Shown: positions 30,947 through 62,454, counted from the stretch's first letter. The stretch is DNA of 64,000 nt from a phage (OZ346158.1); one strand, 5' to 3'. The notes: generated from the sequence alone by a model not told the origin. Numbers and translations are program-made.

Positions 30947-31007
30947 TAAGATGTAAGTATAAAGGGGAGGCACTCCTCCCCACAAAAACTAAGGAGAGCA
31001 CCAAACG

Positions 31008-48739: not shown

Positions 48740-49200
48740 ATTTCTAAAATGGATTTCCTCCTTTTGATATTTTACCTACCAGGATATTTTAAAATCCTTA
48801 GAAAATCAGAAAATGGATCGAAAACTAAAATGGATTTTTCAGAGCAGGCACGACGAGATGAACCACTCATCCTATCGTCTGCACCATATTCCAGACCACC
48901 ATTACAGATTTCCCGCACATGCTCACATCCTTCTACTAGAACTTCCCCCACTTACCCTTGACCTTTTATAGTAATAATCCAACCACTACCTTGAAGTTGT
49001 GGCGCAGCTTTCCAAGTACTCGATCTGTTTTTCGTTTCAAAGATTTAATTTTCTGAAAATTTTTCTCGATAAATTTCTCAGTACTCGATCTGTTTTTCGT
49101 TTTCTGAATCGGATTTTCTGGAAATCGTTCCGGCTCTCGACCTGAAATTTTTGGGGACGAAATCGATTTTTCGTTTTCAGAAATGGATTTTTAAAATTTC
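48740..49200. repeat. iteron-like direct repeats in non-coding region
   Basis: AGTACTCGATCTGTTTTTCGTTT at 49015 and 49080 (65-bp spacing), related CGATTTTTCGTTTTCAG at 49163; several AAAATGGAT copies between 48745 and 49190. Confidence 0.6.
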
Positions 49201-49310: not shown

Positions 49311-49515
49311 TGATAATCATTCTCGTTTGCAGAATAACGGGCAGGCCCGGTGATTGTCTCCCGGCCCCTACTGCCCCGGCTTGTTATTATAGTAACACAC
49401 AGGACAAAGAAAGCAAGAAGTTTTTGCATAAATTTTTAGACGATAATGATAATCGTTCTCATTTCATGCAGCGCCCATCCCCGGTGGTTGTCTCCCCCGT
49501 CACCGGTGCCTGCCG
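49311..49515. repeat. imperfect direct repeat pair (about 55 bp) containing CCGGTG(A/G)TTGTCTCCC
   Basis: ATAATCATTCTCGTTTGCAG...CCCGGTGATTGTCTCCC at 49311 and ATAATGATAATCGTTCTCATTTCATGCAG...CCGGTGGTTGTCTCCCCC at 49444. Confidence 0.6.
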
Positions 49516-49706
49516 TCCTTTCAATAGGTATATTTTGCCACCTGGCGGGGCCGCTGTCAACACTTTTCAAAAAAAAAATTCTAACCTGATGCGCTGACCG
49601 CTGCAACCTGGCAGGGCCTAACTGACCAGGTAGGAGAGAATGAAGGCTTGCAAACCTGGTGGGCCTATGCTATAGGATAGGTAACAATTGAAGAGGAGGT
49701 ACAAAA

Positions 49707-49883
49707 ATGGAAGGTAATATGATCCCCCTGGAAAATGTAGCTATTAATGACGCTGAGGCTATCGCCCTGGTTGAAAAGGCTATGGCGGGAGCGTTGGAAC
49801 ATAAAGAAGAGTACGAAAAAATGGTGGTTAACCTGGCAGGGGCGGCGGCTGGAGAATTCTACCCAAAAAATAATTTTAACTAA
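49707..49883 (+). CDS. hypothetical small protein (58 aa)
   Basis: Below track cutoff; strong RBS AAGAGGAGG 7 nt upstream of ATG. Confidence 0.5.
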   Translation: MEGNMIPLENVAINDAEAIALVEKAMAGALEHKEEYEKMVVNLAGAAAGEFYPKNNFN

Positions 49884-49968
49884 TGGTTGACAGCTCGGAC
49901 AGTTCTTGTTATTCTTATCCTCGCAAGGTGAACAACACCACACCAATTAACAGAGAGGATAAAAAATC

Positions 49969-50166
49969 ATGAACGCCTACGGAATTAAAGTACGTCGCAA
50001 CACTCGCCAGGTGGTCACCAATCAAGTGATTTGCCGGGTGGATGTAACCATCAACAACGGGCAAGGCCTTTATAAATTTCGTCGCGGTCATAGCTATACC
50101 CTGCAACAGCTTAACCGTTGCGCCCTGACAAAAGGTCAGATCAACCACTGGTTTAATAAAAAATAA
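49969..50166 (+). CDS. hypothetical basic protein
   Basis: 65 aa, RBS GAGAGGATAAAAAATCATG. Confidence 0.55.
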   Translation: MNAYGIKVRRNTRQVVTNQVICRVDVTINNGQGLYKFRRGHSYTLQQLNRCALTKGQINHWFNKK

Positions 50167-50229
50167 TGTTGACATAGGGTCTGACACAAAATACACTGAA
50201 ATCACAAAAGACACTAAGAGGATAAAATC

Positions 50230-50628
50230 ATGAAAACCACTACCTTTAATTTTGATAATGCGGACTTTTCTTTTTCTGATGTCAAGAACTGCCGCCGTGA
50301 TCGTGGATTTTACAAGGCTTATAATCTGGTGGGCCTGGACGATGACAATAATTTGCACGAAGTAGCTGAGATCCGGTATTATGCCGCCGCCAGTGGTAAC
50401 ACTCACTACTGCGTGTTTTGGATTCACGACAACAAGAACAATAAGTACGGTTATACTGGCGGCAAGGCGAGCGGTCACGGTTACGATAAAGCTAACGCAG
50501 CACTTGAGAGCGCATTAAATGCTATGGGGATCACTGCCGACGGCTGGATCTACGAAGAAGAGTTTTTGTCGGCACTTGCTGACCACCTGGGCTATAAAAA
50601 GCACATTGTGACATGCGCCCACGAATAA
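50230..50628 (+). CDS. hypothetical protein
   Basis: 132 aa, RBS AAGAGGATAAAATCATG; promoter-like TTGACA-17-TACACT at 50169. Confidence 0.55.
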   Translation: MKTTTFNFDNADFSFSDVKNCRRDRGFYKAYNLVGLDDDNNLHEVAEIRYYAAASGNTHYCVFWIHDNKNNKYGYTGGKASGHGYDKANAALESALNAMGITADGWIYEEEFLSALADHLGYKKHIVTCAHE

Positions 50629-50711
50629 AAATCATTGACACGCTGCAAAATTTAAGTAAACTAGACACAAAAGGCGGGAATGTTTCCCGCCAGCACAAAG
50701 GAAAAAAGATC

Positions 50712-51107
50712 ATGAATAAGAACGTACGCCGCATCATGAACGAACTGGCAAACGATGAAAAAATTATTGACATGCATTTAGTCAACATTTGCCGCCGTTG
50801 TGTAACATATAACAACCGCGCCGCAAAAGCGCGTGAGATGAACGCAAAAGGCACCTTAAAGCCCTTTCAGGTGGTTGTAAAATCTATAACCAGTGCAGCA
50901 GGCCAGGCGCATGACCACAACAACGGGAGCACTAATATTGATCCGTCTTACGTAATGAAACGGATCCGGACTTGCAAGAATAAAGAGCAGGTGTATAATG
51001 TCATAGACTGGTTGGATTCTATGGGCGATGTGGTTTACAATAGGTTTTCTGCAGCTATCGAGATCCAGCTTGACAGGTTGGACGGTAAAGTACTGAAAAC
51101 TTACTAA
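50712..51107 (+). CDS. hypothetical protein
   Basis: ATG after AAAGGAAAAAAG; upstream TTGACA-16-TAAACT and leader hairpin GGCGGGAA-TGTT-TCCCGCC. Confidence 0.5.
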   Translation: MNKNVRRIMNELANDEKIIDMHLVNICRRCVTYNNRAAKAREMNAKGTLKPFQVVVKSITSAAGQAHDHNNGSTNIDPSYVMKRIRTCKNKEQVYNVIDWLDSMGDVVYNRFSAAIEIQLDRLDGKVLKTY

Positions 51108-51155
51108 GATTATTTTTAGATGGCCTTGACTTCAGGGCCATCAATAAAGTAAACT
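51105..51155 (+). repeat. 51-bp intergenic element, copy 1 (hairpin ATGGCC-TTGACTTCAG-GGCCAT)
   Basis: TAAGATTATTTTTAGATGGCCTTGACTTCAGGGCCATCAATAAAGTAAACT starting at the stop codon; identical copy at 51736, diverged copy at 55475. Confidence 0.8.
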
Positions 51156-51187
51156 AATCCCAGTTAAGCGAAAAAGGAGGCTTGAAG

Positions 51188-51307
51188 ATGAGCACTACAC
51201 GCCAACACACAAAGGTAACGATTATCGTTTGCATCATTGGTTACATCCTGGCGCAAATGTTGATGGGTAGCGCCAATGATTTCGCAAAATTTTTCTTAGA
51301 CTTTTAA
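51188..51307 (+). CDS. small membrane peptide (39 aa)
   Basis: AAAAAGGAGG RBS; hydrophobic core VTIIVCIIGYILAQMLM. Confidence 0.4.
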   Translation: MSTTRQHTKVTIIVCIIGYILAQMLMGSANDFAKFFLDF

Positions 51308-51335
51308 TTGACAAGCTAACTTAAATCAGTATAAT
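51308..51335 (+). promoter_or_regulatory. sigma70-like promoter TTGACA-16-TATAAT
   Basis: Consensus -35 and -10 hexamers, then leader hairpin and RBS for gene 51388. Confidence 0.6.
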
Positions 51336-51387
51336 ACTAAGCACATAAACGGGAAAACTTCCCAGAACACCAAAAGGAGAAAACATT

Positions 51388-51738
51388 ATGAATACTTCCA
51401 TCACTATGACCGCCGAAGAAAAAGCCCTGCAGATCGCCGCTCTGAAAAAACAGATTGCAGAACTTGAAGACAAGATCGACAATTTTGAAATCGACGAAGA
51501 CAAGTACGACGATAAATATGATGAATGGTTAGACGAGATCTACGGCGAAATTATGATCGGAAACATTTCTTTTCTTCCGTCGCGTATCCTCAAGGAGCTA
51601 GATCCTATCGCTTACCGCTGCGGATTTAGCGACTACATCGACAGCCTGGATATTGAGGACGATGAAGAATACCAGGAATTACAGACAGAGTTAGAAGAAG
51701 CAAAAGAAGAGCTTGCAGAACTGGAAGAAAACGAGTAA
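51388..51738 (+). CDS. highly acidic coiled-coil protein (candidate DNA mimic)
   Basis: 116 aa dominated by D/E (e.g. DIEDDEEYQELQTELEEAKEELAELEENE); AAAAGGAGAAAA RBS; own promoter. Confidence 0.6.
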   Translation: MNTSITMTAEEKALQIAALKKQIAELEDKIDNFEIDEDKYDDKYDEWLDEIYGEIMIGNISFLPSRILKELDPIAYRCGFSDYIDSLDIEDDEEYQELQTELEEAKEELAELEENE

Positions 51739-51786
51739 GATTATTTTTAGATGGCCTTGACTTCAGGGCCATCAATAAAGTAAACT
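51736..51786 (+). repeat. 51-bp intergenic element, copy 2
   Basis: Identical to 51105..51155; begins at stop codon of 51388..51738. Confidence 0.8.
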
Positions 51787-51827
51787 TTATACTGTTAACA
51801 CTGAACTAATGCATAGGAGTTAAAACC

Positions 51828-52073
51828 ATGGCAGCACTAATCACCAAATATTATGCCCCTACCAACACCAAAAGCGCCCGTATCATGGTAAAAGGCTTCG
51901 GACGTAAAAAGGTGTACACCTGGGATTATGCCTTAGACACGGAAGACAACTACACCAACGCGATGACCGATTTTATTAATGATCTGAACACGCGGATCTT
52001 GACAAATTATAAAATTACCGATATTGCCTATATAGGGGAAGGCGGGATCTGTTTTGTCGGTATCGTCAAATAA
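51828..52073 (+). CDS. hypothetical protein
   Basis: 81 aa, RBS GGAGTTAAAACCATG. Confidence 0.5.
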   Translation: MAALITKYYAPTNTKSARIMVKGFGRKKVYTWDYALDTEDNYTNAMTDFINDLNTRILTNYKITDIAYIGEGGICFVGIVK

Positions 52074-52148
52074 GCTGTTTTTTCGGTGGTCCTGGTAGCA
52101 GGGCCATCTATAAAGATAGTTTATCAATACAATGAAAGGAGAAAGTAC

Positions 52149-52502
52149 ATGATCAGCGGGGCAAGTTTTATTATTGGCGCTATTGCTACGGCTTTAATTG
52201 TAAACAAGATCCAATCTAAAAACGAAAAAGATAGCAACGCCCTTACAGAATACCCGTTTTGGGTATTCAACGACAATGAAGACTATATTATCAAGTACAA
52301 GAATGAGAAGGGCGACCAGGTAACACCTCGACCGATCCCGGCTTACAAGATGCAAGAAACACTATACCGCCTAAAGGCTGGAGGCGCAAAAATCGTAGAC
52401 TTTTGGGGATACGATCACACAGATCAGGAAGTTATAAAGCGCCGTATCCGGGCTATTCAGGCCAATATTGAAGTTAGCAAGGGGGGAATATATGAAGATT
52501 AA
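52149..52502 (+). CDS. membrane-anchored hypothetical protein
   Basis: ATG after AAAGGAGAAAG; N-terminal hydrophobic helix. Confidence 0.5.
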   Translation: MISGASFIIGAIATALIVNKIQSKNEKDSNALTEYPFWVFNDNEDYIIKYKNEKGDQVTPRPIPAYKMQETLYRLKAGGAKIVDFWGYDHTDQEVIKRRIRAIQANIEVSKGGIYED

Positions 52503-52689
52503 TTTTGAGAAGATTGTAAAGCGATCTCATGCTTCCGAAGAGCTGCCGGAACGCCGCCAGCGCAACAATAAACTGAATAAGCCAAAAAGATTTGGGAAGA
52601 TCTGGCGGAATCATTATGATCGCAAATTACCGGGCCTGCTTTTGGAACGTGAACGACAGGCGGAACGATACCGCCACAAAGGCAAATAA
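52492..52689 (+). CDS. small basic protein
   Basis: ATG after GGGGGGAA; Arg/Lys-rich 65 aa. Confidence 0.4.
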   Translation: MKINFEKIVKRSHASEELPERRQRNNKLNKPKRFGKIWRNHYDRKLPGLLLERERQAERYRHKGK

Positions 52690-52697
52690 CAACCAAC

Positions 52698-52727
52698 GCC
52701 CCGCCATTGTGCGGGGCTTTTTATTTC
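52698..52727 (+). terminator. rho-independent terminator
   Basis: GCCCCGC-CATTGT-GCGGGGC followed by TTTTTATTT. Confidence 0.75.
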
Positions 52728-52871
52728 TATCCTACAAATAGCGCCCCTGGTTGGCCCTGTAAGCGCCAAAAAGGCCCCACCTATGCAATCGCCCCCCCTT
52801 TAACCTGAAAACATCGCTTAGGGCCGTTTTATGGCGTTAAAAATATCATTGACAGTGATTTTATTTAAAGC

Positions 52872-52899
52872 TTGACATCTTAAACAGGTTAGCTATACT
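52872..52899 (+). promoter_or_regulatory. sigma70-like promoter TTGACA-16-TATACT
   Basis: cTTGACAtcttaaacaggttagcTATACT upstream of gene 52932. Confidence 0.55.
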
Positions 52900-52931
52900 A
52901 ACCACATCAAAGAGAGAAAGGAGTAAACGCC

Positions 52932-53192
52932 ATGCGTAAATTAAAAAATTTTGATAAAGTTGATGTTGTCCTGAATAATTTTTACTACTGCAACAACAAG
53001 GCCATTTGGTGGCGTGATAGTTCCACCGATAAAGTCAAGGCGCGCTTTCTCCAGGGGCACTGGCAAGGCCGCCCAGTGATTAAAATCATGGGGCAATTGG
53101 TAGCGTTTAAAAATTGCCGCCGTGTTGATGACGTTGAAGAGATCTTGAATATTTTACGCCACAATAATTTAAAAAATAGTGTTGACAAGTAA
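52932..53192 (+). CDS. hypothetical protein
   Basis: 86 aa, AAAGGAG RBS. Confidence 0.5.
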   Translation: MRKLKNFDKVDVVLNNFYYCNNKAIWWRDSSTDKVKARFLQGHWQGRPVIKIMGQLVAFKNCRRVDDVEEILNILRHNNLKNSVDK

Positions 53193-53209
53193 ATCTCAAT
53201 AAGTATACT
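53182..53209 (+). promoter_or_regulatory. sigma70-like promoter TTGACA-16-TATACT
   Basis: gTTGACAagtaaatctcaataagTATACT, followed by leader hairpin GCGGGAA-GTTT-TCCCGC and RBS. Confidence 0.55.
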
Positions 53210-53266
53210 TAAGCACACAGGCGGGAAGTTTTCCCGCCACTAACAAAGAAAATAGGAGAAAATATC

Positions 53267-53890
53267 ATGACCACCGTTAACATTACCACAGGTTGCAATT
53301 TATCTTTCGACGTGCTGACCGACGAACAAAAAGAAAAAGCTATTGAAATGGTCCGCGAAAGAGAAGAACACAGCGGAGAGGATTTTTTCGCAGAAAGTGT
53401 AATTGAATATTATAAAGAACAAGTTTTTCCAGAGTACGGCCTTGAAGATACCGATGTACATTGGTCCGGCTTTTGGTGTCAAGGCGATGGCGCGTCAATT
53501 AATGCTGAAAATGTAGACTTAGAGAAATTCTTGCGTAAAGTCAAGGCCCTGACCAAGTTCCGATCAATTCGTCACTTGTTCGGCACAATGCACGATGGCG
53601 AACTATCAGCCAGTGTTGAACGCGACAAGTACAGCCATTACAGCCATGAAAACACTGTAAGCGGATATATTGATACTACCTGGCTAGATCTGACCGCAAA
53701 ACAAGAAAATAAAGTAGAAGATCTGGAAGAGCTGATCACCGAGACGGTACGGGAGCTATCCCGCAAGGTTTATGTAGACCTGGAGGAGGCCTATCTTGAA
53801 CAGTTTACTACCGAAAACCTGATCGGCCTTATTGAAGCCAATGATTGGCGGTTTGATGTGGATGAATATGGAGAAATGAGTTTTTCATAA
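53267..53890 (+). CDS. hypothetical acidic protein (207 aa)
   Basis: AATAGGAGAAAA RBS; acidic composition; own promoter. Confidence 0.55.
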   Translation: MTTVNITTGCNLSFDVLTDEQKEKAIEMVREREEHSGEDFFAESVIEYYKEQVFPEYGLEDTDVHWSGFWCQGDGASINAENVDLEKFLRKVKALTKFRSIRHLFGTMHDGELSASVERDKYSHYSHENTVSGYIDTTWLDLTAKQENKVEDLEELITETVRELSRKVYVDLEEAYLEQFTTENLIGLIEANDWRFDVDEYGEMSFS

Positions 53891-53898
53891 ATAAAGTG

Positions 53899-53926
53899 TT
53901 GCAATAATCTAAAAACCTGCTATATT
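53899..53926 (+). promoter_or_regulatory. sigma70-like promoter TTGCAA-16-TATATT
   Basis: gTTGCAAtaatctaaaaacctgcTATATT upstream of gene 53982. Confidence 0.5.
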
Positions 53927-53981
53927 AAAACTTAAGGGGGAGAGATGACTTGCCCCCACACAAAACAAAGAGGAAAACATC

Positions 53982-54362
53982 ATGAAAAACACTACTAAAG
54001 CTATTGACACCGTTATGTTTAACCTGGTTACATTCCGTGAAGATATGAAAGATCTTCCACGTGAAACAGTGTGCGACCATATCGAAAACTATCGCAAACT
54101 AATCAAAGAGTTGCCTTTAAAACGTGACCAGTACGCGGCTAACGCTATGCTTAACGCCATGATCAAGAAAATGATTCAGTGCGATTTGACTTTAGCTTAT
54201 GATTATGCAGGTGGTCGTTTTGCAGTATACAATCAGCCCGTGCCTGGTATGAGCACCACAGAAGAATTGCACGCGTTAAATCTAAAACAAGACGTATGGG
54301 ATAACATGCCCCGCGTGGTGGTGTGGGCAGAAAGCGGAAAGATTTACGGCGATAATTTTTAA
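53982..54362 (+). CDS. hypothetical protein
   Basis: 126 aa, AAAGAGGAAAACATCATG RBS. Confidence 0.55.
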   Translation: MKNTTKAIDTVMFNLVTFREDMKDLPRETVCDHIENYRKLIKELPLKRDQYAANAMLNAMIKKMIQCDLTLAYDYAGGRFAVYNQPVPGMSTTEELHALNLKQDVWDNMPRVVVWAESGKIYGDNF

Positions 54363-54372
54363 TCAGGTAACA

Positions 54373-54398
54373 GGCGGCATATTTGCCGCCTTATTGTT
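54373..54398 (+). terminator. rho-independent terminator
   Basis: GGCGGC-ATATTT-GCCGCC followed by TTATTGTT. Confidence 0.6.
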
Positions 54399-54426
54399 AA
54401 ACAGAACTGCAAAAGAGGTACATAGA

Positions 54427-54798
54427 ATGGAATTTATTATTTTGGCTGTAGTAGTTGCCTTGTTCAACGCCTGGATCGCTGGCAAGATAGGTAGATCCGC
54501 TTTTCTATGGTTTGTTATATCTATTTTCCTGGGAGTGGTTGCAACTATTGTATTGGTTATCCTTGCAATTGTTGACAAGGGGAATAATAGAAAGGGTAAA
54601 GTATTTTCAGACCTGTACGACGCTCAAACGTTTGTCAACGCCTATTATAGTGATCTTCCAGTCTCCCTACGTTGCAGCCTTGCACAACAGGTTTTCGATG
54701 AAGCTAAAACCAGAGATCACGCCCATGAGATTTGTTTAACTGAGGCGGATCGCCTATTTGAGAGGAATAGAAAATATGTGGACCAGCCGTTTAAATAA
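54427..54798 (+). CDS. inner-membrane protein (two predicted TM helices)
   Basis: ATG after AAAAGAGG; N-terminal hydrophobic segments IILAVVVALFNAWIAG and FLWFVISIFLGVVATIVLVILAIV. Confidence 0.55.
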   Translation: MEFIILAVVVALFNAWIAGKIGRSAFLWFVISIFLGVVATIVLVILAIVDKGNNRKGKVFSDLYDAQTFVNAYYSDLPVSLRCSLAQQVFDEAKTRDHAHEICLTEADRLFERNRKYVDQPFK

Positions 54799-54908
54799 TG
54801 CCACGTTAATTAACCCCTTTAGTGAAGATTTGAAGCCAGCCGCCTGGCGGGATGGATTCAATAACGAAAGCTTTATTTTCAGGCCTGATCTTAAGGAATT
54901 TTATAACA

Positions 54909-55136
54909 ATGGATCGAACAACGACAGAGATAATTTTTCTTGTAATGTGCGTGGTGATAATACTCCTGGGGGCCATTGCAAACCACGTCACTGCTAACAG
55001 GAGGAAAGGGGAGACGATGACACCCAAGGATAAGCCCCGTACCGATAAGGCGCGCCGTGTTATGGTATGGCTTGAGATCATCGCCCTTGAAATATTGTTA
55101 GGCGTAGGGATGTATTTTATCGCTGTAAGTAATTGA
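54909..55136 (+). CDS. possible small membrane protein (start and frame uncertain)
   Basis: ATG after AAGGA; two hydrophobic helices; competes with overlapping ORF 54776..54997. Confidence 0.3.
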   Translation: MDRTTTEIIFLVMCVVIILLGAIANHVTANRRKGETMTPKDKPRTDKARRVMVWLEIIALEILLGVGMYFIAVSN

Positions 55137-55276
55137 TAACGGCCCCGATCCCTGGGGCCTAACTTTTCAAATTTTTTTCTCCCTGAGTGTTGCAATCCGA
55201 TCCAGAATATGGATAATAACAATCAACGGGGAGACACTCCCCACCGCATAGACAAAGTTCCAAAAGGAGAAACAAA

Positions 55277-55477
55277 ATGAGCAACAATATCCGCGTTATT
55301 AACTTCAAAAAAGAAGAAAAAATTGCCGTGCTGATTGACGGTCAAGAAATCTTTAAAGGTGATTATGAAGATCATCAAACGGCGATTAGTATCACTCGCG
55401 TGATTGGTTACCATAATTTTTACCCTCAAGGCGCTGAGGCAGCAGTAAAACGAATTAAAGAGATTGTAGGCCTGTAA
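55277..55477 (+). CDS. hypothetical protein
   Basis: 66 aa, AAAAGGAGAAACAAAATG RBS. Confidence 0.5.
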   Translation: MSNNIRVINFKKEEKIAVLIDGQEIFKGDYEDHQTAISITRVIGYHNFYPQGAEAAVKRIKEIVGL

Positions 55478-55525
55478 AATTTATTTTTAGATGGCCTTGA
55501 CTCCAGGGCCATCAATAAAGTAAAT
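55475..55525 (+). repeat. 51-bp intergenic element, copy 3 (diverged)
   Basis: TAAAATTTATTTTTAGATGGCCTTGACTCCAGGGCCATCAATAAAGTAAATT. Confidence 0.75.
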
Positions 55526-55568
55526 TTAAACCCTGTTAAAATAATCAGTGCAAAAAGGAGTAATGATC

Positions 55569-55868
55569 ATGTTTATCCAGGCTAATAATCTTTATTTCTT
55601 TGATGGTCAGATCGTAGACGGCGTGGAGGTGGAAATCACCGGGTGCCCTGGCGGTCAGGTTATGACTTTTCGGAATAATGCCTTTGATGATTCTCATATC
55701 GTTATGAGAATGGAAGTTAGTAAGCTGGATGACAAGAAAACACTCATTGATTATTCCGTGAAAGATCATCCAGACTACCACATGATCTATGGTGATTTGT
55801 GCATTGTTGACCGTGACAAGGTGGGCGGCATTGTGATCGCTATTGTGAACGATGTTTTCTCAAACTAA
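55569..55868 (+). CDS. hypothetical protein
   Basis: ATG 8 nt after AAAAAGGAG. Confidence 0.5.
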   Translation: MFIQANNLYFFDGQIVDGVEVEITGCPGGQVMTFRNNAFDDSHIVMRMEVSKLDDKKTLIDYSVKDHPDYHMIYGDLCIVDRDKVGGIVIAIVNDVFSN

Positions 55869-55885
55869 TTTCAGCAGGTGATTTT

Positions 55886-56236
55886 ATGAAAGTAAAACTA
55901 TATTACCTTAATGAGCTTAACCCCCTTGCCCAGGTCCGCGCCATGGCTAATACCTTGATTTGTGAGAAATCTGTATATTGTGTTGAGCTTAACTCCATGC
56001 GTGAACGTCTCAAAGGTGGTTACTTTGACATCCATGCTGCAATCAACGGCCTGAATATGGAATTTATCCGCTTACGTAACAGCCGCCAGAATCTGGGAAG
56101 AATGGAACAAGATCCGGCCCACCTTCGTAAGCTGGTTATTGAAAATCATCTAATGTTTAATGCCGATGGTGATTATTACCATTTTCACCGTAAACGCTGG
56201 TACCGTAGCGGCAATATAGGAAAGAATGCAAAATAA
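55886..56236 (+). CDS. hypothetical protein
   Basis: 116-aa ORF, weak RBS. Confidence 0.45.
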   Translation: MKVKLYYLNELNPLAQVRAMANTLICEKSVYCVELNSMRERLKGGYFDIHAAINGLNMEFIRLRNSRQNLGRMEQDPAHLRKLVIENHLMFNADGDYYHFHRKRWYRSGNIGKNAK

Positions 56237-56270
56237 GGCCCCTGGCAGGGCCTGCAGCGATATAATCACA

Positions 56271-56305
56271 TAAAGGCTATGCGGTTGCATAGCCTTTATT
56301 ATTTT
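56271..56305 (+). terminator. rho-independent terminator
   Basis: AAAGGCTATGC-GGTT-GCATAGCCTTT followed by ATTATTTT. Confidence 0.7.
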
Positions 56306-56444
56306 GGCGTTACAGCGGCCCCCAAGGCGCTTAAAAAAATTTTTAAAGAAGTACTTGCATCAAGTCCTACAATATGGATAATAAAGGGTGTCGGGGGGGC
56401 GGTGAGGCCTCCAATCATTAACCGGATAGATAGGAGTTAAAACC

Positions 56445-56729
56445 ATGGCTATTGTTACCGTTGGCGATGTAGTAGAAATGGAAGCCAAATACTTAAAAGC
56501 TGGTATGCATATCATACGGAATGATCAAGAATTGTTATTAACCATGGTTGAATATAATCCCGGTCAGGATTATCCAAGCATTGACTACTTTTTCCAGTAT
56601 GTTGATGAAGAATTAAAAGAGGATGAGGCTTATCAGGGTGAATTTTGTAATTTCTTTTGCCCTGATGAGGTTGTAAAAGTTATCTATCAACCTGGCGTAC
56701 CTTTCCCGCTGCACGCTATCAACAAATAA
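56445..56729 (+). CDS. hypothetical protein
   Basis: 94 aa, TAGGAGTTAAAACCATG RBS. Confidence 0.5.
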   Translation: MAIVTVGDVVEMEAKYLKAGMHIIRNDQELLLTMVEYNPGQDYPSIDYFFQYVDEELKEDEAYQGEFCNFFCPDEVVKVIYQPGVPFPLHAINK

Positions 56730-56784
56730 ACCTGGCGGGGCCGAAAAGGCCCCCAATTATGAAAATAAAGAGAGGCAAATCATC

Positions 56785-57018
56785 ATGATGGAACAAATTA
56801 AACGCGCCGAGGCTATTAATGGCAACGTGATCTATTTTGTCAGCAAAAACGAAAAAGGCGTACCCTATGCGGCGGTAATAGTACAGCCTGACGGCGATTA
56901 TTGGTGTACTGTGTACGGCGCTTATTCTTTTGGGCGTCCAGTGCATGATAAAATTTTGAAAGTAGCGAACCCTACCGGGAAAAATATCACAGCAGAAAAA
57001 TTTTTTGAAAATAGTTGA
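56785..57018 (+). CDS. hypothetical protein
   Basis: 77 aa, AGAGAGG RBS. Confidence 0.5.
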   Translation: MMEQIKRAEAINGNVIYFVSKNEKGVPYAAVIVQPDGDYWCTVYGAYSFGRPVHDKILKVANPTGKNITAEKFFENS

Positions 57019-57089
57019 CATGACCATATAAGACTGTAGTATATAAATCAAAGGGGCAAGCCCCACCAACCACAAAGAGGATAAAAATC

Positions 57090-57269
57090 ATGGCTATTAT
57101 TGCAAAGACTGAGATCGTAGGCTTGGATTCTATTCTCCTCGCATATGAGGAAGCTATAGAAATGTATGTGGTTTCCTATGGTGAGTATATCCGTGAATAT
57201 AAATCTATTGATCTGGCTTTTGAATGTTATATTCGCCAGGTTAATAAAGCGTACGATGATTATCGTTAA
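57090..57269 (+). CDS. hypothetical small protein (59 aa)
   Basis: Below track cutoff; AAAGAGGATAAAAATCATG RBS; TTGACA promoter at 57015. Confidence 0.45.
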   Translation: MAIIAKTEIVGLDSILLAYEEAIEMYVVSYGEYIREYKSIDLAFECYIRQVNKAYDDYR

Positions 57270-57359
57270 AATAGTTTGAAAACAAACAACCATCTTACAA
57301 AGCATAATACATAAGGCGGTGGAATGGTCCGCCACCTGGAACAAGAAGAGGAAAACAAA

Positions 57360-57464
57360 ATGAAACAGAAATTAATTGATGCGGTGATCCTGGTTATTGC
57401 CCTGGGTATTGGCCTGATTGCAACCATGGCTAATGTGATCTTGTCTTCCAACGGTATCGGGTGA
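57360..57464 (+). CDS. possible small membrane peptide (34 aa)
   Basis: AGAAGAGGAAAACAAAATG RBS; hydrophobic core AVILVIALGIGLIATMA. Confidence 0.35.
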   Translation: MKQKLIDAVILVIALGIGLIATMANVILSSNGIG

Positions 57465-57779
57465 GGTTGGCAAATGATCACTAACAAAACAGGCAAGCGG
57501 AATTTTTACTCAACTTACAGATCGGCAAGCCTGAGATCTGGTATTGCACTAAAACACCACGTGACGAAATGAAAGACTTCACCGCCACGCTGCAACGGGT
57601 AAAGATATCCATCACGCAGAAAAAGGCCTTGATAGTGGTGGAAGGTGAGATCCCTCAAACCGTTGTTATAGTTGAGCGTACAGCATAGTTTAATTTATAC
57701 CGATACCCGAAAATTAACCAACAAAGCATAAACAGGCGGTTACCGCCGCCTTAAACGTAGCAGAAAGAGGATAGACACA

Positions 57780-58064
57780 ATGAAAAAGATGATCGCAGTG
57801 GTTGCCCTGGTTGTTGGACTTAATGCGCCTGTAATGGCTAAAGAGCTGGCAAAAGAGGTTAATCTAACGGATATTCATGCCGTCAATCGAATCGGGGTTA
57901 CTTATCGCTTATGCCTTGCCGCTAAAACTTTTAAGGACGGCACGACAGAGTACTACGGATTCGAAGGTGTCCGGTGCGGTGAACTTGCTCGCGACCTTAA
58001 GGAAGATCCAGACCTGGAGGATCTGCCCATCACCGTAAACGGGAAAACTTACGTAAACCGTTAA
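57780..58064 (+). CDS. secreted/periplasmic small protein
   Basis: 94 aa; signal peptide MKKMIAVVALVVGLNAPVMA; AGAAAGAGGATAG RBS. Confidence 0.55.
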   Translation: MKKMIAVVALVVGLNAPVMAKELAKEVNLTDIHAVNRIGVTYRLCLAAKTFKDGTTEYYGFEGVRCGELARDLKEDPDLEDLPITVNGKTYVNR

Positions 58065-58212
58065 CCATGATAAAGATAATCATCACCTTGGCATCGTGGC
58101 GGGATCGCTGGCGCTCTTTCTCCTTATGGTTAGGTATGTGCTGATCGGTATTGTCCTGGTAGTCAGTGATCTATTGGAAACGGTTGGCACCTTGTTTTAA
58201 AGAGCGGTAAAA

Positions 58213-58404
58213 ATGAATATCGAACAAGTTAGAAAGGTATTGGCGGTACTGCGTTATCATAATCATAGAAAGGTCATAGACGATCCTGATTATGTCGATT
58301 CAAGCCTGGAAGGGGATACACTACAAGCCATAAGTAACATGCAAGAATTGCTAAAGCGCATGACAGAGAAAAACCGACCGGACTACATAGGCGAAAAAAT
58401 ATAA
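58213..58404 (+). CDS. hypothetical protein
   Basis: 63-aa ORF, weak RBS. Confidence 0.4.
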   Translation: MNIEQVRKVLAVLRYHNHRKVIDDPDYVDSSLEGDTLQAISNMQELLKRMTEKNRPDYIGEKI

Positions 58405-58467
58405 TCCTTATAAACTACAAAACAGGGCTTGCAATGGTCCTGTTTTTTGTTATACTTGTTTCACGGC

Positions 58468-58505
58468 AGGCGCCTGGCGACGGGGGAGACAATCACCGGG
58501 TGTGC
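58468..58505 (-). repeat. inverted copy of the 49.35/49.48-kb CCGGTGATTGTCTCCC element
   Basis: GGGGGAGACAATCACCGGG on + strand is the reverse complement of the motif at 49346 and 49479; flanks GCCTGCCGT also shared. Confidence 0.6.
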
Positions 58506-58615
58506 CTGCTATATAAAAACTATAAAAACCGTTGACATCTGCCAGGTGGTGGGGTAGCATTTATCTCGAAGGGGGCAAAAGCGCCCACACAACAACCGGA
58601 AGAGAGGAAAACGCC

Positions 58616-58888
58616 ATGTTAAGCTGGATTAACCAAGAAGTTGAATCACGTTTCAATGCTATTTGGGATCTCATCGAAAAAGAGGACGGAACATCAAGCC
58701 CTTATCTCAATAATCTTGAATTCCATTTCGTGGAAGCGATGAACGCAGAACATGATCACGAAGGTGGTGCGGATGAATTCGCTAAAGGATATGGCTTCAA
58801 CAATGCCAACGAAATGATCGAGGCGGTTGTACTCCAGGCTGAGGAAGATTATCAATTAAAAACGCTTGAATTCTGCCGCCGTAAGTAA
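58616..58888 (+). CDS. hypothetical protein
   Basis: ATG after GAAGAGAGGAAAA; TTGACA promoter-like at 58531. Confidence 0.5.
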   Translation: MLSWINQEVESRFNAIWDLIEKEDGTSSPYLNNLEFHFVEAMNAEHDHEGGADEFAKGYGFNNANEMIEAVVLQAEEDYQLKTLEFCRRK

Positions 58889-58950
58889 TAAGATAATGAC
58901 ACGGGCCAAAAGGCCCACTAAACAAAAACCACATAAAGAGGAAAAACATC

Positions 58951-59214
58951 ATGAAACGTCTTGATCAGCTCAAATTAGTTCAATATATGGCTTATCGTGT
59001 TCTTGAAGTCCAGAAAGGTAGCAAAAAAGAGGTTTGCGAGAAAGCTTATAAGATCTTCACTCGCAAAAAAGATGATTGGATGTTACGCCAGACCAAAAAA
59101 GCCGATATCTTGGGGTACCTGGAAGAAGAGATCCGGCTTGAAGAGCAAGAAGAGATCCGCCGCAGTGAGGCAGATTATCAGGCAGCTTGGGAAAACTGGA
59201 TGAATAACAAATAA
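58951..59214 (+). CDS. hypothetical charged protein
   Basis: 87 aa, AAAGAGGAAAAACATCATG RBS. Confidence 0.5.
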   Translation: MKRLDQLKLVQYMAYRVLEVQKGSKKEVCEKAYKIFTRKKDDWMLRQTKKADILGYLEEEIRLEEQEEIRRSEADYQAAWENWMNNK

Positions 59215-59280
59215 TACAACAAGTTACATGGTCAGGGGCAATAAAGCCCCTTGATCACATAAAAATTATGCCATCCTTGG

Positions 59281-59309
59281 TTGACAGGGATCGGCAGTTT
59301 TGCTATATT
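59281..59309 (+). promoter_or_regulatory. sigma70-like promoter TTGACA-17-TATATT
   Basis: TTGACAgggatcggcagttttgcTATATT upstream of gene 59359. Confidence 0.55.
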
Positions 59310-59358
59310 CTTTTTTGAAGGGAAGTTGTAAGAAAATTAACTAAGAGGTAAAAACACC

Positions 59359-59778
59359 ATGAACATTAAATCTAATAATCCGGCATATAGCTTTGATAAC
59401 GCTTTTTGTCACGGTCCGGCGGCGAAAGGATTCGAAATCGATGGTAAACTAGTTATTGTCAATGTTGACGGGGAAGAGGTTGCAGTATATCCGGTGGCAG
59501 ACGTTAAAAGCCGTCTACAATGCCGCATCGATGTTACCGCCTACCAGCTTGATCCGGTCCGGGTAGTTGCCCTGGTCCTGGAAGAAGAAATTAAAGCAAT
59601 GCACCACAGCAACAAGTTTATTGGTGACGCTCAAGATAATATGAAGGTGTGCCGCCATAAAGTTAATGAAGTGCTTAAAGAATATGGCTTTAAAGATCTG
59701 ATGATCAAACGTGAGGAAAAATTCCGCTACCGTAACGACCTGGCAAATCGGATTTTTGAAATATACGAATCATTATAA
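59359..59778 (+). CDS. hypothetical protein
   Basis: 139 aa, CTAAGAGGTAAAAACACCATG RBS; followed by terminator. Confidence 0.55.
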   Translation: MNIKSNNPAYSFDNAFCHGPAAKGFEIDGKLVIVNVDGEEVAVYPVADVKSRLQCRIDVTAYQLDPVRVVALVLEEEIKAMHHSNKFIGDAQDNMKVCRHKVNEVLKEYGFKDLMIKREEKFRYRNDLANRIFEIYESL

Positions 59779-59796
59779 TTTCTTAACTGAATTATC

Positions 59797-59826
59797 AAGG
59801 GGCTTAAAGGCCCCTTTCTTTTTGTC
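59797..59826 (+). terminator. rho-independent terminator ending the + strand small-gene array
   Basis: AGGGGC-TTAAAG-GCCCCT followed by TTCTTTTTG. Confidence 0.75.
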
Positions 59827-60591
59827 TGCTCTTCTCCTACCATAAACGGCCCTACCTGGCAAGTGGAATAATTGACTAGCCATCAATCCCACATACTGTA
59901 CAAATATACATGGAAAATAACTATTGCATAATTTTTCATTGTGTGGTAGCAAGTCCATTTTTACCCGTTTTCTCTCCCAAAAGTGCACGTAATGCCGCTA
60001 TTGCACAAATTTTAACCTGATGCACATCTCCAATATCTTGTCAACAACTAAAAATCTTTATAAGTCATACACTTACACAGCATCGAAAGCGTGTTCTACG
60101 CGAAAAATCGAGTATAACTATAGCCGCCAGATCTCAGAATTCACGTACGCACGCCATTCTATAGCCTGCAAAGTATTTATTCCAACCACAGAATAACGGA
60201 ATAGTCAATACCTGCATAAAATAATTATTCGTGTAAACTGCATAACATAAATCAGCTCAGGTGTCAACATTTTTCGTAAACAGTCCGAAATTATCACGAT
60301 GAGTTATCATAAACAGAGAAATCTTTAGTCGTCTAATGTTTACTGTACATTACTATACTGACTGGAATCATTAGATGACTAATACAATAGAACAAATTAA
60401 TAATGTAATTATTTTACCTGTAACAATAAGGCAACTATGCAAACGAATGGCATGGCGCGACGGAGTCGCGACATAATATAAAAGCAGTAACCATCACCCC
60501 CGTGATAGTTTGTCTGCAAACTATTAATCAGATCATAGTTGCCTTGTATTTAGTTAATCATGACATAACAAGCAAGGCAACTATAGATATA
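59827..60591. other. AT-rich non-coding region with multiple hairpins/inverted repeats
   Basis: No credible ORF; hairpins ATAGTTTG-TCTG-CAAACTAT (60506), ATAGTTGCCTTG...CAAGGCAACTAT (60538/60580, third copy of AAGGCAACTAT at 60424), TAGTCGTCTAATG...CATTAGATGACTA (60326/60376). Confidence 0.5.
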
Positions 60592-60849
60592 CTAAACCAT
60601 AGCTTCAAAAGGAGTCATGAACGAATAAACGGCATCATCATCTGCTTCAGGGAATGCTCCCAAAGACTTCATATCTGAACCCTTGACAAATACAAGGTTT
60701 TGATCAAAGGCTTCTTGGGGGTCAATCCGATACATATTTCGTAGAATATCGCTTACCTCCTCATCAAGAGGTGAGTATGCTGTGCACGTTTTTCCGATCA
60801 AGCTTTGAGAATCAGGGTATCCACCTGAAGTTTTAAAATAAACAATCAT
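60592..60849 (-). CDS. hypothetical protein
   Basis: 85-aa ORF, last gene of - strand block. Confidence 0.45.
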   Translation of the reverse strand: MIVYFKTSGGYPDSQSLIGKTCTAYSPLDEEVSDILRNMYRIDPQEAFDQNLVFVKGSDMKSLGAFPEADDDAVYSFMTPFEAMV

Positions 60850-60940
60850 ATAGTATCACCTCTGGTAAGAGATTGGGATTCCTTTCCCACAAATAATTAC
60901 AAATCTTCCTTATCGAGGAAGTATGCTAATCCAAGCAGGA

Positions 60941-61210
60941 TTATTCCTCTACAATCTCATACACATCAGGAGTTACAATCAATTCTTCTCCGTTACCCGG
61001 TGCAACAAACACCACCAAACCTTCAGGTGTGTGCTTTTTAGCCATCTCGATAACATCTTCTCGCAGAGCTGGCTCCATCAGATCAAAACCTTCACCCAGG
61101 GCATCACGAACCACCTTCATATAGTCCACTGGTTGTGCTTCAACAATCATGCCTTCAACCAGTCCACAGTTTTTGTCTGCCAGCTCAGTTTTGAATAATT
61201 TAATTTTCAT
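60941..61210 (-). CDS. hypothetical acidic protein
   Basis: 89 aa, GAGGAGA RBS on - strand. Confidence 0.5.
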   Translation of the reverse strand: MKIKLFKTELADKNCGLVEGMIVEAQPVDYMKVVRDALGEGFDLMEPALREDVIEMAKKHTPEGLVVFVAPGNGEELIVTPDVYEIVEE

Positions 61211-61236
61211 TTAGAGGTCTCCTCAATTATTTGATA

Positions 61237-61338
61237 TTAATAGCCGTAACCTAACACATTAACTACAACTGCGATTGCAAACATAATTTCAAAGCATGCA
61301 ATCTCTACATTTGGGACTAATTTCTTAATCACACCCAT
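61237..61338 (-). CDS. possible small membrane peptide (33 aa)
   Basis: Below track cutoff; GAGGTG RBS-like; hydrophobic. Confidence 0.3.
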   Translation of the reverse strand: MGVIKKLVPNVEIACFEIMFAIAVVVNVLGYGY

Positions 61339-61347
61339 TGTAGCACC

Positions 61348-61665
61348 TCATTTTCCAAAGTCAATCTTTACTTTGCCTTTCCCCTTACCTTTCTTTCCAC
61401 CGCATTTAGCCAGCTGACGTGCTGCAACATCTACCATACGGTCAGTTGCCTCGTAAGCATCACTACCTTTAGCCTTGGCAATAACTTCTTTTCCAGAATT
61501 GTCAAAAATGAACGCCATAACTTCCTGGTGATCATTTTCAACTTTTACACTCACACGTGCATAGTTGGCAGAGGGGTGCAAACGCTCCAGTTTAGACATT
61601 TTGTTGGAAATGAAAGACACCATACCTTCAGTGATTTCTACGTTGCCAGTGATTTCAATTTGCAT
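61348..61665 (-). CDS. hpf: ribosome hibernation promoting factor / RaiA family (Ribosomal_S30AE) homologue
   Basis: 105 aa; N-terminus MQIEITGNVEITEGMVSFISNKMSKLERL...VKVEN aligns by eye with E. coli HPF MQLNITGNNVEITEALREFVTAKFAKLEQ...LKVEK; ARQLAK near C-terminus; own - strand promoter TTGACA-17-TATCAT (61713..61741) preceded by a terminator hairpin. Confidence 0.8.
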   Translation of the reverse strand: MQIEITGNVEITEGMVSFISNKMSKLERLHPSANYARVSVKVENDHQEVMAFIFDNSGKEVIAKAKGSDAYEATDRMVDVAARQLAKCGGKKGKGKGKVKIDFGK

Positions 61666-61712
61666 AACGTGTTCCTTTTAAAGAAGAGGGAACCAAACCC
61701 TCTTTGAAAACA

Positions 61713-61741
61713 ATGATACTAAATCTGAAGCGTTGTGTCAA
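61713..61741 (-). promoter_or_regulatory. sigma70-like promoter TTGACA-17-TATCAT driving the HPF homologue
   Basis: Reverse complement reads TTGACAcaacgcttcagatttagTATCAT about 45 nt upstream of HPF start; terminator-like hairpin AGAGGGAACCAAACCCTCT lies just upstream at 61684..61702. Confidence 0.55.
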
Positions 61742-61747
61742 CAGTTT

Positions 61748-62038
61748 TTACAGATTGTTGTCGATAGTTTTTAAAATATCCACAGCAAGATCTGCCATTT
61801 TTCGAACATACTCTGCAAACTCAACAGGATCCTTGATCAAAGAATTCACAGGGTCGTACCCTAGAGCGTTCAAAATGGCTGCAGCATCTACAACCTTCTC
61901 ATCATTTGCGAAGATCTCTCCATCAAACTTGTAGGTCCATTTTGAGTCAATCTTGGCAGGGAAGGATTGGTCAACGCTTGTTACACCATCCTTTTTAAAC
62001 GCTCCGGTGTTATCAGTGTCCAGAACTAAATCCATCAT
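61748..62038 (-). CDS. hypothetical protein
   Basis: 96-aa ORF. Confidence 0.5.
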   Translation of the reverse strand: MMDLVLDTDNTGAFKKDGVTSVDQSFPAKIDSKWTYKFDGEIFANDEKVVDAAAILNALGYDPVNSLIKDPVEFAEYVRKMADLAVDILKTIDNNL

Positions 62039-62055
62039 GTTAGTACCCCACTGTT

Positions 62056-62454
62056 TCAGTTTAGCTTTTCTTCAACAACCCCATAGCTCGGGACAGAGTC
62101 AAGAGCTTTCTGGTTTAAAAGTGGTGTAGCAGAATCTGCAAACGGTGTCCAAGTTTTTGTTCTGGCATTCCAGTAATGCTTCACTCTGGAATCTGGATGC
62201 ACTATAACAAAAACTTTTTCACTTGTCAACACATTAATTTCTTCTACACCCTTGCTGATAATTTCTCCGTCATAGCCCCCAGTCTGGTATCCTTCGTACC
62301 AGGTTCTTGCATAGGCATAGCCAGCTTGCCAGCATGCAGCCTCCTCCGAGGTGGAGACTACGTAGAAGTCTTTCTCAAATTCTGGAATACGCCCTTGCTT
62401 TATGCTCCAAGCTCCGCGAATTTTCATTGTAACTTTGAACAGTTTATTTTTCAC
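62056..62454 (-). CDS. hypothetical protein
   Basis: 132-aa ORF. Confidence 0.5.
   Translation of the reverse strand: MKNKLFKVTMKIRGAWSIKQGRIPEFEKDFYVVSTSEEAACWQAGYAYARTWYEGYQTGGYDGEIISKGVEEINVLTSEKVFVIVHPDSRVKHYWNARTKTWTPFADSATPLLNQKALDSVPSYGVVEEKLN

Follow-up and report, generated by a model that had tools for sequence, protein, structure and literature searches.

The 64,000-nucleotide (nt) stretch of phage DNA analysed here (OZ346158.1; hereafter the window) comes from a Vequintavirus, an rV5-like coliphage, and carries an array of small genes in which promoter, leader hairpin and ribosome-binding site (RBS) recur as a unit.

49600-59830, + strand: array of ~30 small genes encoding 29-207 amino acids (mean ~92)

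This interval matched 209 phage records and was 98.3% identical to Escherichia phage JohannBauhin (Bas53), whose counterpart has 30 annotated coding sequences on a single strand, one called 'putative holin' and the remainder 'hypothetical'. From this annotation and a check of open reading frames (ORFs) we counted ~30 genes, and not the about 25 given in a preliminary description of the sequence. These genes, g01-g30, are orthologous to bas53_0101-0130 and to rV5 genes 195A-164. They form the distal end of a long + strand block that opens with rIIA/B, helicase, methyltransferase, primase and DNA polymerase genes; in Bas53, ~55 small genes come after the replication-type genes of this block. A terminator marks the 3' limit of the array and is followed by a 2.4-kb ORF-poor stretch. 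A compositional island could be ruled out: the interval had been thought GC-richer than the rest of the window and is in fact slightly GC-poorer (0.4246 versus 0.4396 elsewhere), with a GC content at third codon positions similar to that of the large genes. Neither tRNAs nor known RNA families were found anywhere in the window.

We scanned both strands of the interval for TTGACA-N16-18-TATAAT with at least 10 of 12 matching positions and compared the counts with 300 dinucleotide shuffles. The + strand contained 11 such near-consensus sigma70 sites, versus 1.82 +/- 1.35 in the shuffles (maximum 6 among the 300), and the - strand contained 0; nine of the 11 lie immediately 5' of genes. Four promoters quoted in the preliminary description are all present, at 51308 with 12/12 matches and at 52872, 53182 and 59281 with 11/12. 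Its suggestion that many short ORFs have their own promoter holds, counting weaker sites, for ~15-16 of the 30 genes and fails for the others, which appear to be co-transcribed. The 22 nt 5' of the -35 box of 12 promoters are 77% AT, compared with 57.5% in the region. Nine of the array promoters correspond to rV5 P164, P168, P174, P185, P186, P192, P194, P195 and P195A as given in Table S4 of a 2013 study (Kropinski 2013, PMC3606486), so the promoter density is real but already on record. In Certrevirus, promoters of the same family, with the motif AAAA-N3-TGTTGAC, are reported to cluster in the region of short ORFs described as 'likely early' (Buttimer 2020, PMC7344957). Comparable promoter density reaches upstream of the array to ~40 kb, and the promoters at 40-49.6 kb are without leader hairpins.

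Within the array, the leaders of g04, g06, g11, g12, g16, g19, g21 and g28 share one arrangement, here called type A: an AT-rich tract, the -35 and -10 boxes, a gap, a GGG...CCC hairpin, an A-rich unstructured spacer, a strong RBS and ATG. Decayed forms precede g20, g22, g24 and g29. The gap between the -10 box and the hairpin is 9-10 nt in the array, and 15 nt for g06.

50635-50711, + strand: type A leader of g04, TTGACA-16-TAAACT, 10-nt gap; rV5 P194
50673-50691, + strand: g04 hairpin, GGCGGGAA-tgt-TTCCCGCC, -14.6 kcal/mol, z -3.8, then A/C-rich spacer and RBS
51308-51387, + strand: type A leader of g06, TTGACA-16-TATAAT (12/12); rV5 P192
51351-51363, + strand: g06 hairpin, GGGAA-aac-TTCCC, 15-nt gap, then RBS
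53182-53266, + strand: type A leader of g11, TTGACA-16-TATACT, 10-nt gap
53220-53238, + strand: g11 hairpin, GGCGGGAA-gtt-TTCCCGCC, z -4.8, then spacer and RBS
53899-53981, + strand: type A leader of g12, TTGCAA-16-TATATT, 9-nt gap, hairpin at 53936-53957
55190-55276, + strand: type A leader of g16, TTGCAA-16-GATAAT, 10-nt gap, hairpin GGGGAG-aca-CTCCCC (55228-55242)
56355-56444, + strand: type A-like leader of g19, TTGCAT-16-GATAAT (weak -35), G-run hairpin at 56395-56412
57015-57089, + strand: type A leader of g21, TTGACA-16-TAGTAT, 10-nt gap, hairpin GGGGC-aa-GCCCC (57053-57064); rV5 P174
58532-58615, + strand: type A leader of g28, TTGACA-17-TAGCAT, hairpin at 58573-58586; rV5 P168
56737-56753, + strand: G-run/C-run hairpin without a good promoter, g19/g20 junction
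57314-57337, + strand: G-run/C-run hairpin without a good promoter, g22
57734-57751, + strand: G-run/C-run hairpin without a good promoter, g24
58903-58916, + strand: G-run/C-run hairpin without a good promoter, g29
49887-49915, + strand: promoter-like site without leader hairpin, g02; rV5 P195A
50169-50197, + strand: promoter-like site without leader hairpin, g03; rV5 P195
52872-52899, + strand: promoter-like site without leader hairpin, g10, TTGACA-16-TATACT; rV5 P186
59281-59309, + strand: promoter-like site without leader hairpin, g30, TTGACA-17-TATATT; rV5 P164

The four hairpins that had been quoted before are among these (50673-50691, 51351-51363, 53220-53238 and 57734-57751). The g11 and g04 leaders are 71% alike over 56 nt, and 'aatatgGATAAT' is common to the g16 and g19 leaders, the latter having no significant fold z. 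In the g22 leader, the window phage has a promoter spacer of 21 nt and phage SophiaRose has TTGACA-17-CATAAT. The hairpin-to-ATG segment, described earlier as A/C-rich, is composed of A 56%, C 18%, G 17% and T 9% in the array, and an RBS of the AAAGAGGAAAA type with ATGAAA recurs as had been claimed (repeat families D3, D7 and D8), together with an RBS/start motif, AAGAGGAAAACATCATGAAA.

The shared leader architecture put forward in the preliminary description proved real, non-random and conserved in a shuffle test, a promoter-anchored fold test and a survey of 71 instances. In the first, which that description had itself named as able to overturn its claim, leader hairpins were enriched over shuffled sequence, the minimum free energy summed over 22 leaders being -207.7 versus -144.0 +/- 10.3 kcal/mol in shuffles (z -6.2; 0 of 200 shuffles as low). 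In the second, we folded 32 nt starting 5 nt past the -10 box, with no pre-selection of hairpins, and obtained -6.0 kcal/mol, compared with -1.0 for the next 32 nt, -3.9 for an upstream control and -2.4 for shuffles. The same test in relatives gave -10.3 to -13.6 kcal/mol, with flanking controls and shuffles ranging overall from -0.7 to -6.1. The survey set comprised 71 non-redundant promoter + hairpin + RBS instances; 33 of them have a gap of exactly 10 nt between the -10 box and the hairpin, and 52 a gap of 9-11 nt. Almost all hairpins (69/71) are G-first, of the GGG...CCC type, and 33 distinct arms occur. Hairpin end and ATG are separated by a median of 24 nt, and the spacer consists of A 59%, C 21%, G 10% and T 10%.

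The type A layout extends to the Stephanstirmvirinae (muut, Schickermooser) and to two IMG/VR contigs, where it is more stereotyped: an A-rich tract, TTGACA-16/17-TAnnAT, gtatcacRTAG, the hairpin, an A/C-rich spacer and the RBS, the hairpins belonging to the families GGGCGGCA-atRg-TGCCGCYC or GGCGGGAAA-tgg-TTTCCCGCC. Matches to this stereotyped cassette were obtained in 157 phage records: genomes of Justusliebigvirus and Phapecoctavirus hold several copies each and some Vequintavirus a single one, and among the matches listed only rV5/phi92/phAPEC8-type phages (~131-161 kb) host it. An IMG/VR search using g12 yielded 5 loci only. In Bas53, 6 of the 11 promoter-hairpin-RBS composites found in the 104 kb scanned fall within the array. 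The same layout, with a ~10-nt gap between promoter and hairpin and a following RBS, also occurs outside the array in the window, at 30964-30981 (+ strand, GGGGAGG-cact-CCTCCCC) and at 61704 (- strand, AAGAGGG-tttggtt-CCCTCTT). Twenty-three GenBank records titled 'Campylobacter phage' with host C. jejuni (e.g., MG065655, MG065659) match E. coli rV5-type sequence and, among the matches listed, are ~94% identical to the window sequence; their labels look doubtful, as from contamination or mislabelling.

Pairing in type A hairpins was assessed by comparing orthologues, as a MAFFT alignment of the paralogous hairpins was out of register. The g12 orthologues stay paired via G.U and one double compensatory change, with GGGGGC/GCCCCC becoming GGCGGGC/GCCCGCC in the relative L009; orthologous hairpins also show A-U to G.U to G-C steps that keep pairing, and the loop of the g11 hairpin is GTT or AAC. 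The repeated elements are real, non-random and fixed in position, conserved in structure while their sequence varies, and common to a second phage subfamily. The palindromes might instead be DNA operators, lying at ~+5 to +25, for a phage repressor that shuts off early transcription: they are perfect, two families dominate (GGCGGGAA-N3-TTCCCGCC and GGGCGGCA-N4-TGCCGCYC), their position is typical of a roadblock, and the type A strand count of 14 versus 9 is not decisive. However, a repressor would face 33 different arms, often several per genome, and stems that vary as pairing is kept, including via G.U; with loops of 3-5 nt the half-sites would have no spacer between them, and domain and family searches found no candidate regulator among the array products, all of which makes operators very unlikely. 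An apparent strand call, based on the sense fold being more stable in 47 of 61 cases, was dropped because that set had been ascertained with G.U allowed. We also dismissed N4-type hairpin promoters, as no phage RNA polymerase is annotated in the Bas53 stretches examined and the related phage CB7 is reported to be without one (PMC7344957). Antisense terminators were rejected as well, a - strand T run being present at g04 only.

The other hairpin class, type C, is longer: four copies of a 51-nt cassette begin at stop codons.

51105-51155, + strand: type C copy beginning at the stop codon of g04, loop region with TTGACT, z -4.5
51736-51786, + strand: type C copy after g06, 100% identical to the first
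52071-52121, + strand: diverged type C copy after g07, 69% identity, -28.2 kcal/mol, z -7.5
55476-55526, + strand: type C copy after g16, 90% identity, z -5.8

In its fold, a 2x3 internal loop separates a 10-bp GC upper helix from a U:A lower helix of 7-13 bp, giving ~21 bp in all with the interruption. Among 20 distinct copies from the window and related genomes, 96% of cells are paired, versus 36-57% when the partner is slid, and compensatory change affects four pairs and 21 cells (0/500 shuffles). Pairing throughout the upper helix (100%) requires G.U, where the other strand would have A.C mismatches, and this points to an RNA structure of the sense strand. Since the diverged copy at 52071 retains and lengthens the structure and has lost the -35-like TTGACT, it is the fold, and not a promoter, that seems to be conserved. 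Dependence on G.U pairing is clear for type C; for g12 it is suggestive. No RNA model, from Rfam or elsewhere, matched the array elements.

The array is divided into units by six canonical intrinsic terminators (type D), which possess the 3' U tract characteristic of this class.

52698-52726, + strand: terminator after g09, GCCCCGC-cattgt-GCGGGGC + TTTTTATTT
54372-54391, + strand: terminator
55141-55159, + strand: terminator
56270-56299, + strand: terminator
58419-58446, + strand: terminator
59797-59816, + strand: terminator

Four of them are listed for rV5, again in Table S4, as t164, t177, t181 and t184 (Kropinski 2013, PMC3606486), t164 being the 59797 terminator, which had been placed correctly at the end of the array. 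Two type C cassettes of phage Murica (NC_041871, 3736-3780 and 7123-7167) are annotated 'terminator', a label that departs from the canonical rule since a 3' U tract is missing from both strands of type C. It could nevertheless be argued that the hairpins are only attenuators or terminators that insulate each cassette against transcription from upstream, and that they do nothing for the 5' end of the mRNA that carries them. This agrees with the Murica annotation and with the original reading of the promoter-early stem-loop (PeSL) cassettes of T4-like phages (Arbiol 2010, PMC2839356; Comeau 2014, PMC4122927), whose stem-loops reduced read-through in lacZ fusions; the promoter-less hairpins at 56737 and 58903 come directly after stop codons, and six true terminators exist in the same array. 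However, type A hairpins are not followed by the U tract of a Rho-independent terminator and are succeeded by an A-rich tract with 10% T (71 instances), and in type C either strand reads with a U run on the 5' side and an A run on the 3' side. In addition, a type A hairpin 9-11 nt past its own -10 box would attenuate its own transcripts, a placement that an insulator does not need. We consequently regard insulation as the sole function as unlikely.

Gene content of the array varies among 11 Vequintavirus relatives, and the junctions of several insertions and deletions (indels) between relatives fall within the repeated elements. Phage 241Ecol014PP does not have g07 and carries at the junction a hybrid of the type C copies at 51736 and 52071; an IMG/VR contig without g05-g06 carries a hybrid of those at 51105 and 51736, both losses having come about through crossover between type C copies. 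Gene g30 is absent from three phages, with JeffSchatz showing a clear hybrid of the terminator hairpin at 59797 and another hairpin, and SYGMH1 having a similar junction.

59234-59251, + strand: hairpin AGGGGC-aataaa-GCCCCT, partner of the 59797 terminator hairpin in the g30 deletion of relatives

Between g28 and g29, relatives have an inserted gene of 219 nt with 28 nt of shared leader/RBS on its flanks; between g21 and g22, three phages have different extra genes, and in SophiaRose and rV5_ev158 g22 stands downstream of extra genes behind a different hairpin leader. Loss of g24 involved exchange between similar RBS/start sequences. In Stephanstirmvirinae, g20, g21 and g30 appear as single-gene patches that are 85-93% identical in nucleotide sequence and have the RBS and the stop codon as their limits. 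The junctions with hybrid elements are stronger evidence than an intergenic location. Such observations also suit the idea that the repeats are selfish or neutral recombination scars spread by gene conversion, the hairpins being a side effect: two type C copies are 100% identical in one genome, indel junctions lie inside elements, and Vequintaviruses recombine readily in co-infection. Yet the fixed distances to the -10 box and the start codon and the G/U-poor spacer argue for selection on structure and placement, as do the upkeep of the elements across two subfamilies and the compensatory changes that the diverged type C copy has undergone; we consider the scar idea highly improbable.

The products of the array gave few clues to function. 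Matches to PHROG were obtained for 29 of 31 ORF segments, every one of them of 'unknown function', and the searches made assigned no function to any product other than g09.

52492-52689, + strand: g09, basic protein of 65 amino acids, homologue of T7 gp1.1
53267-53890, + strand: g11, acidic protein of 207 amino acids, the largest array product
51388-51738, + strand: g06, acidic protein of 116 amino acids, orthologue of bas54_0108 by coordinate mapping

The g09 protein gave the one Pfam match of the array (PF08200, 2.3e-10, 41.2 bits for a cut-off of 21), and its homology to an early protein of T7 fits an early module. For g11, the AlphaFold model is confident (predicted local distance difference test, pLDDT, 87) and had no fold match in the PDB; its homologues occur also on ~350-kb contigs. 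The product classes named in the preliminary description are found: acidic proteins of isoelectric point 4.1-4.5 (g01, g06, g11, g17, g19, g21, g28), membrane proteins (g05, g08, g13, g15, g22, g25) and, in the case of g24 only, a signal-peptide-like sequence. In a transposon screen of Bas54, where 146 of 227 genes were dispensable, bas54_0108 was depleted on the clinical isolate E. coli CFE303 and so is conditionally required there (10.1101/2025.11.20.689424), a hint of an accessory or anti-defence role and the sole experimental support in the array for the host-takeover or anti-defence genes expected in the preliminary description. Relative to Bas53, apparent frameshifts split g23 into ORFs of 32 and 39 amino acids (57474-57688) and truncate the start of g25 (58067-58200); these may be pseudogenes or sequencing errors.

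Further elements occur at or near the borders of the array. A ~55-nt element with the invariant core CCGGTGATTGTCTCCC has three copies (0/100 shuffles reach 3), the first two in a repeat region just 5' of the array and the third inverted inside it, under the 29-amino-acid 'g27' ORF.

49347-49362, + strand: CCGGTGATTGTCTCCC element
49481-49496, + strand: CCGGTGATTGTCTCCC element
58484-58499, - strand: CCGGTGATTGTCTCCC element
49006-49191: three direct repeats 65-74 nt apart at the upstream border, 47-nt unit with AGTACTCGATCTGTTTTTCGTTT core
59830-62300: 2.4-kb ORF-poor, AT-richer stretch between convergent gene blocks (rV5 'non-coding' box)

In the scan, the copies at 58484 and 49481 follow a promoter-like site in matching orientation; for the one at 49347 such a site (TTGCTT-19-TATAAT) was seen by eye only, and the consensus fold is weak (-8.5 kcal/mol). 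The element may represent a family of small RNAs or a site bound by a protein. The ORF-poor stretch had no tRNA or Rfam match and contains - strand near-consensus sigma70 sites at 62229, 61741 and 61364. The Bas54 screen recorded no insertions in the equivalent ~2-kb region (10.1101/2025.11.20.689424), which suggests that it has an essential function.

Taken with the leaders, type C helices and junctions, we think it probable that the array is a plastic ORFan region of Vequintavirus organised in PeSL-like cassettes for early expression by the host sigma70 RNA polymerase and for gene shuffling. The preliminary description had recognised the leader architecture, and had missed the likeness to PeSL, the 51-nt second hairpin class and the role in recombination. 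Near-consensus sigma70 promoters with AT-rich upstream tracts point to the unmodified host polymerase and hence make early expression of the array genes plausible; transcription would then proceed early from semi-autonomous cassettes. We favour a role at the RNA level for both hairpin types, given their fixed placement relative to the -10 box and the start codon, the many different stems, the G.U pairing and the lack of U tracts. The type A hairpin begins ~10 nt past the -10 box, that is, at roughly +5 of the predicted transcript, and it might give the mRNA a structured 5' end that slows 5'-end-dependent decay and shield the open ribosome site from upstream sequence. On read-through transcripts, it may stabilise the RNA between cistrons or weakly attenuate transcription. 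The type C helix would be an intercistronic processing or stabilising signal comparable to the early RNase III sites of T7. Finally, the repeated signals would provide 18-51 nt of homology through which genes could be gained or lost without damage to their expression signals, as has been proposed for the PeSL of T4-like phages.

Several points weigh against this interpretation. The literature that we searched held no mapping of transcript ends, 5' or 3', and neither timing nor half-lives for any Vequintavirus, so that we infer the 'early' timing, the start sites and every hairpin function. If transcription starts at the seventh nt after the -10 box, the 10-nt gap is predicted to leave ~4 unpaired 5' nt, and according to work of the Belasco laboratory a 5' tail of ~4 nt reportedly lies at the margin of blocking access by RNase E and RppH. 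The unbiased count of G.U versus A.C at type A stem edges (the 14 versus 9 above) does not settle the strand, and the G-first polarity, being the same on both strands of a palindrome, gives no indication of it. There are also four promoters without hairpin and four hairpins without a good promoter. As for recombination, the g18 deletion has almost no junction homology, and intergenic breakpoints are also expected from selection for intact ORFs alone.

A more elaborate version of cassette-based exchange would make the array an integron-like system in which cassettes, recognised by a phage factor, move ORFans between Vequintavirinae and Stephanstirmvirinae and coordinate early expression or its shut-off. 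The factor could be a regulator that binds RNA, or else a recombination or nuclease protein with structure specificity; we give this proposal a small chance.

PeSL cassettes remain the closest described system. Like the array, they combine repeated sigma70-like promoters, an AT-rich tract and a polyG/polyC stem-loop, end at the RBS/ATG, and occupy hyperplastic ORFan regions where the indel junctions of close relatives fall in cassettes; at the sequence level the array thus shows the repeated promoters, AT tract, G-run/C-run stem-loop, ORFan region and cassette indel junctions by which PeSL are recognised. In one PeSL subclass the stem-loop lies downstream of the -10 box (PMC2839356, PMC4122927). 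By contrast, the PeSL stem-loop takes five positions, whereas that of the array is nearly fixed at ~10 nt past the -10 box, and the array has type C as a further hairpin class. Promoter, attenuator and mini-circle activity have been shown for PeSL, whereas the array is known from its sequence. Moreover, PeSL belong to T4-like phages and the array to a genome of another lineage, the Vequintavirinae, with no sequence relationship expected; as the cassette matched, among the records listed, only rV5/phi92/phAPEC8-type phages, we consider it an analogue of PeSL and not a homologue.

For the type C helix and the overall layout, the nearest analogue is the early region of T7, with its host-type promoters, intercistronic RNase III hairpins, gene 1.1 and early terminator TE (Dunn & Studier 1983). 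Both regions have promoters for the host RNA polymerase, a gp1.1 protein (g09 in the array) and a strong closing terminator (59797 in the array). In both, stop codons are followed by structured hairpins that an internal loop interrupts; in the array these are type C, which has the ~20-bp intercistronic helix with internal loop of a T7-type RNase III site. They differ in that T7 promoters are clustered at the left end, whereas the array has many internal ones, and the cleavage site in type C is putative. The ompA 5' untranslated region and the T7 phi10 leader carry 5'-terminal stem-loops that stabilise mRNA. Type A resembles them in that a GC hairpin, predicted to lie close to the 5' end, precedes an open A-rich initiation region, and differs in its predicted 5' tail of ~4 nt, marginal for protection. 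A term search of PMC3606486 and PMC7344957 retrieved, in the text it covered, no leader hairpin, fixed position, 51-nt structure or cassette-mediated indels. The architecture is orderly, real and partly already annotated; it is not a new kind of system.

Phages of the rV5-like and phi92/phAPEC8-like groups are common candidates for therapy and biocontrol, and unknown small ORFs make up about half of their genes. If our interpretation is correct, standard promoter-hairpin-RBS cassettes would provide a rule for predicting early transcription units in these phages as well as ready-made strong expression parts. Cassette seams would account for the exchange of accessory, possibly anti-defence, genes between the two subfamilies, and the PeSL idea would extend beyond the T4-like phages.

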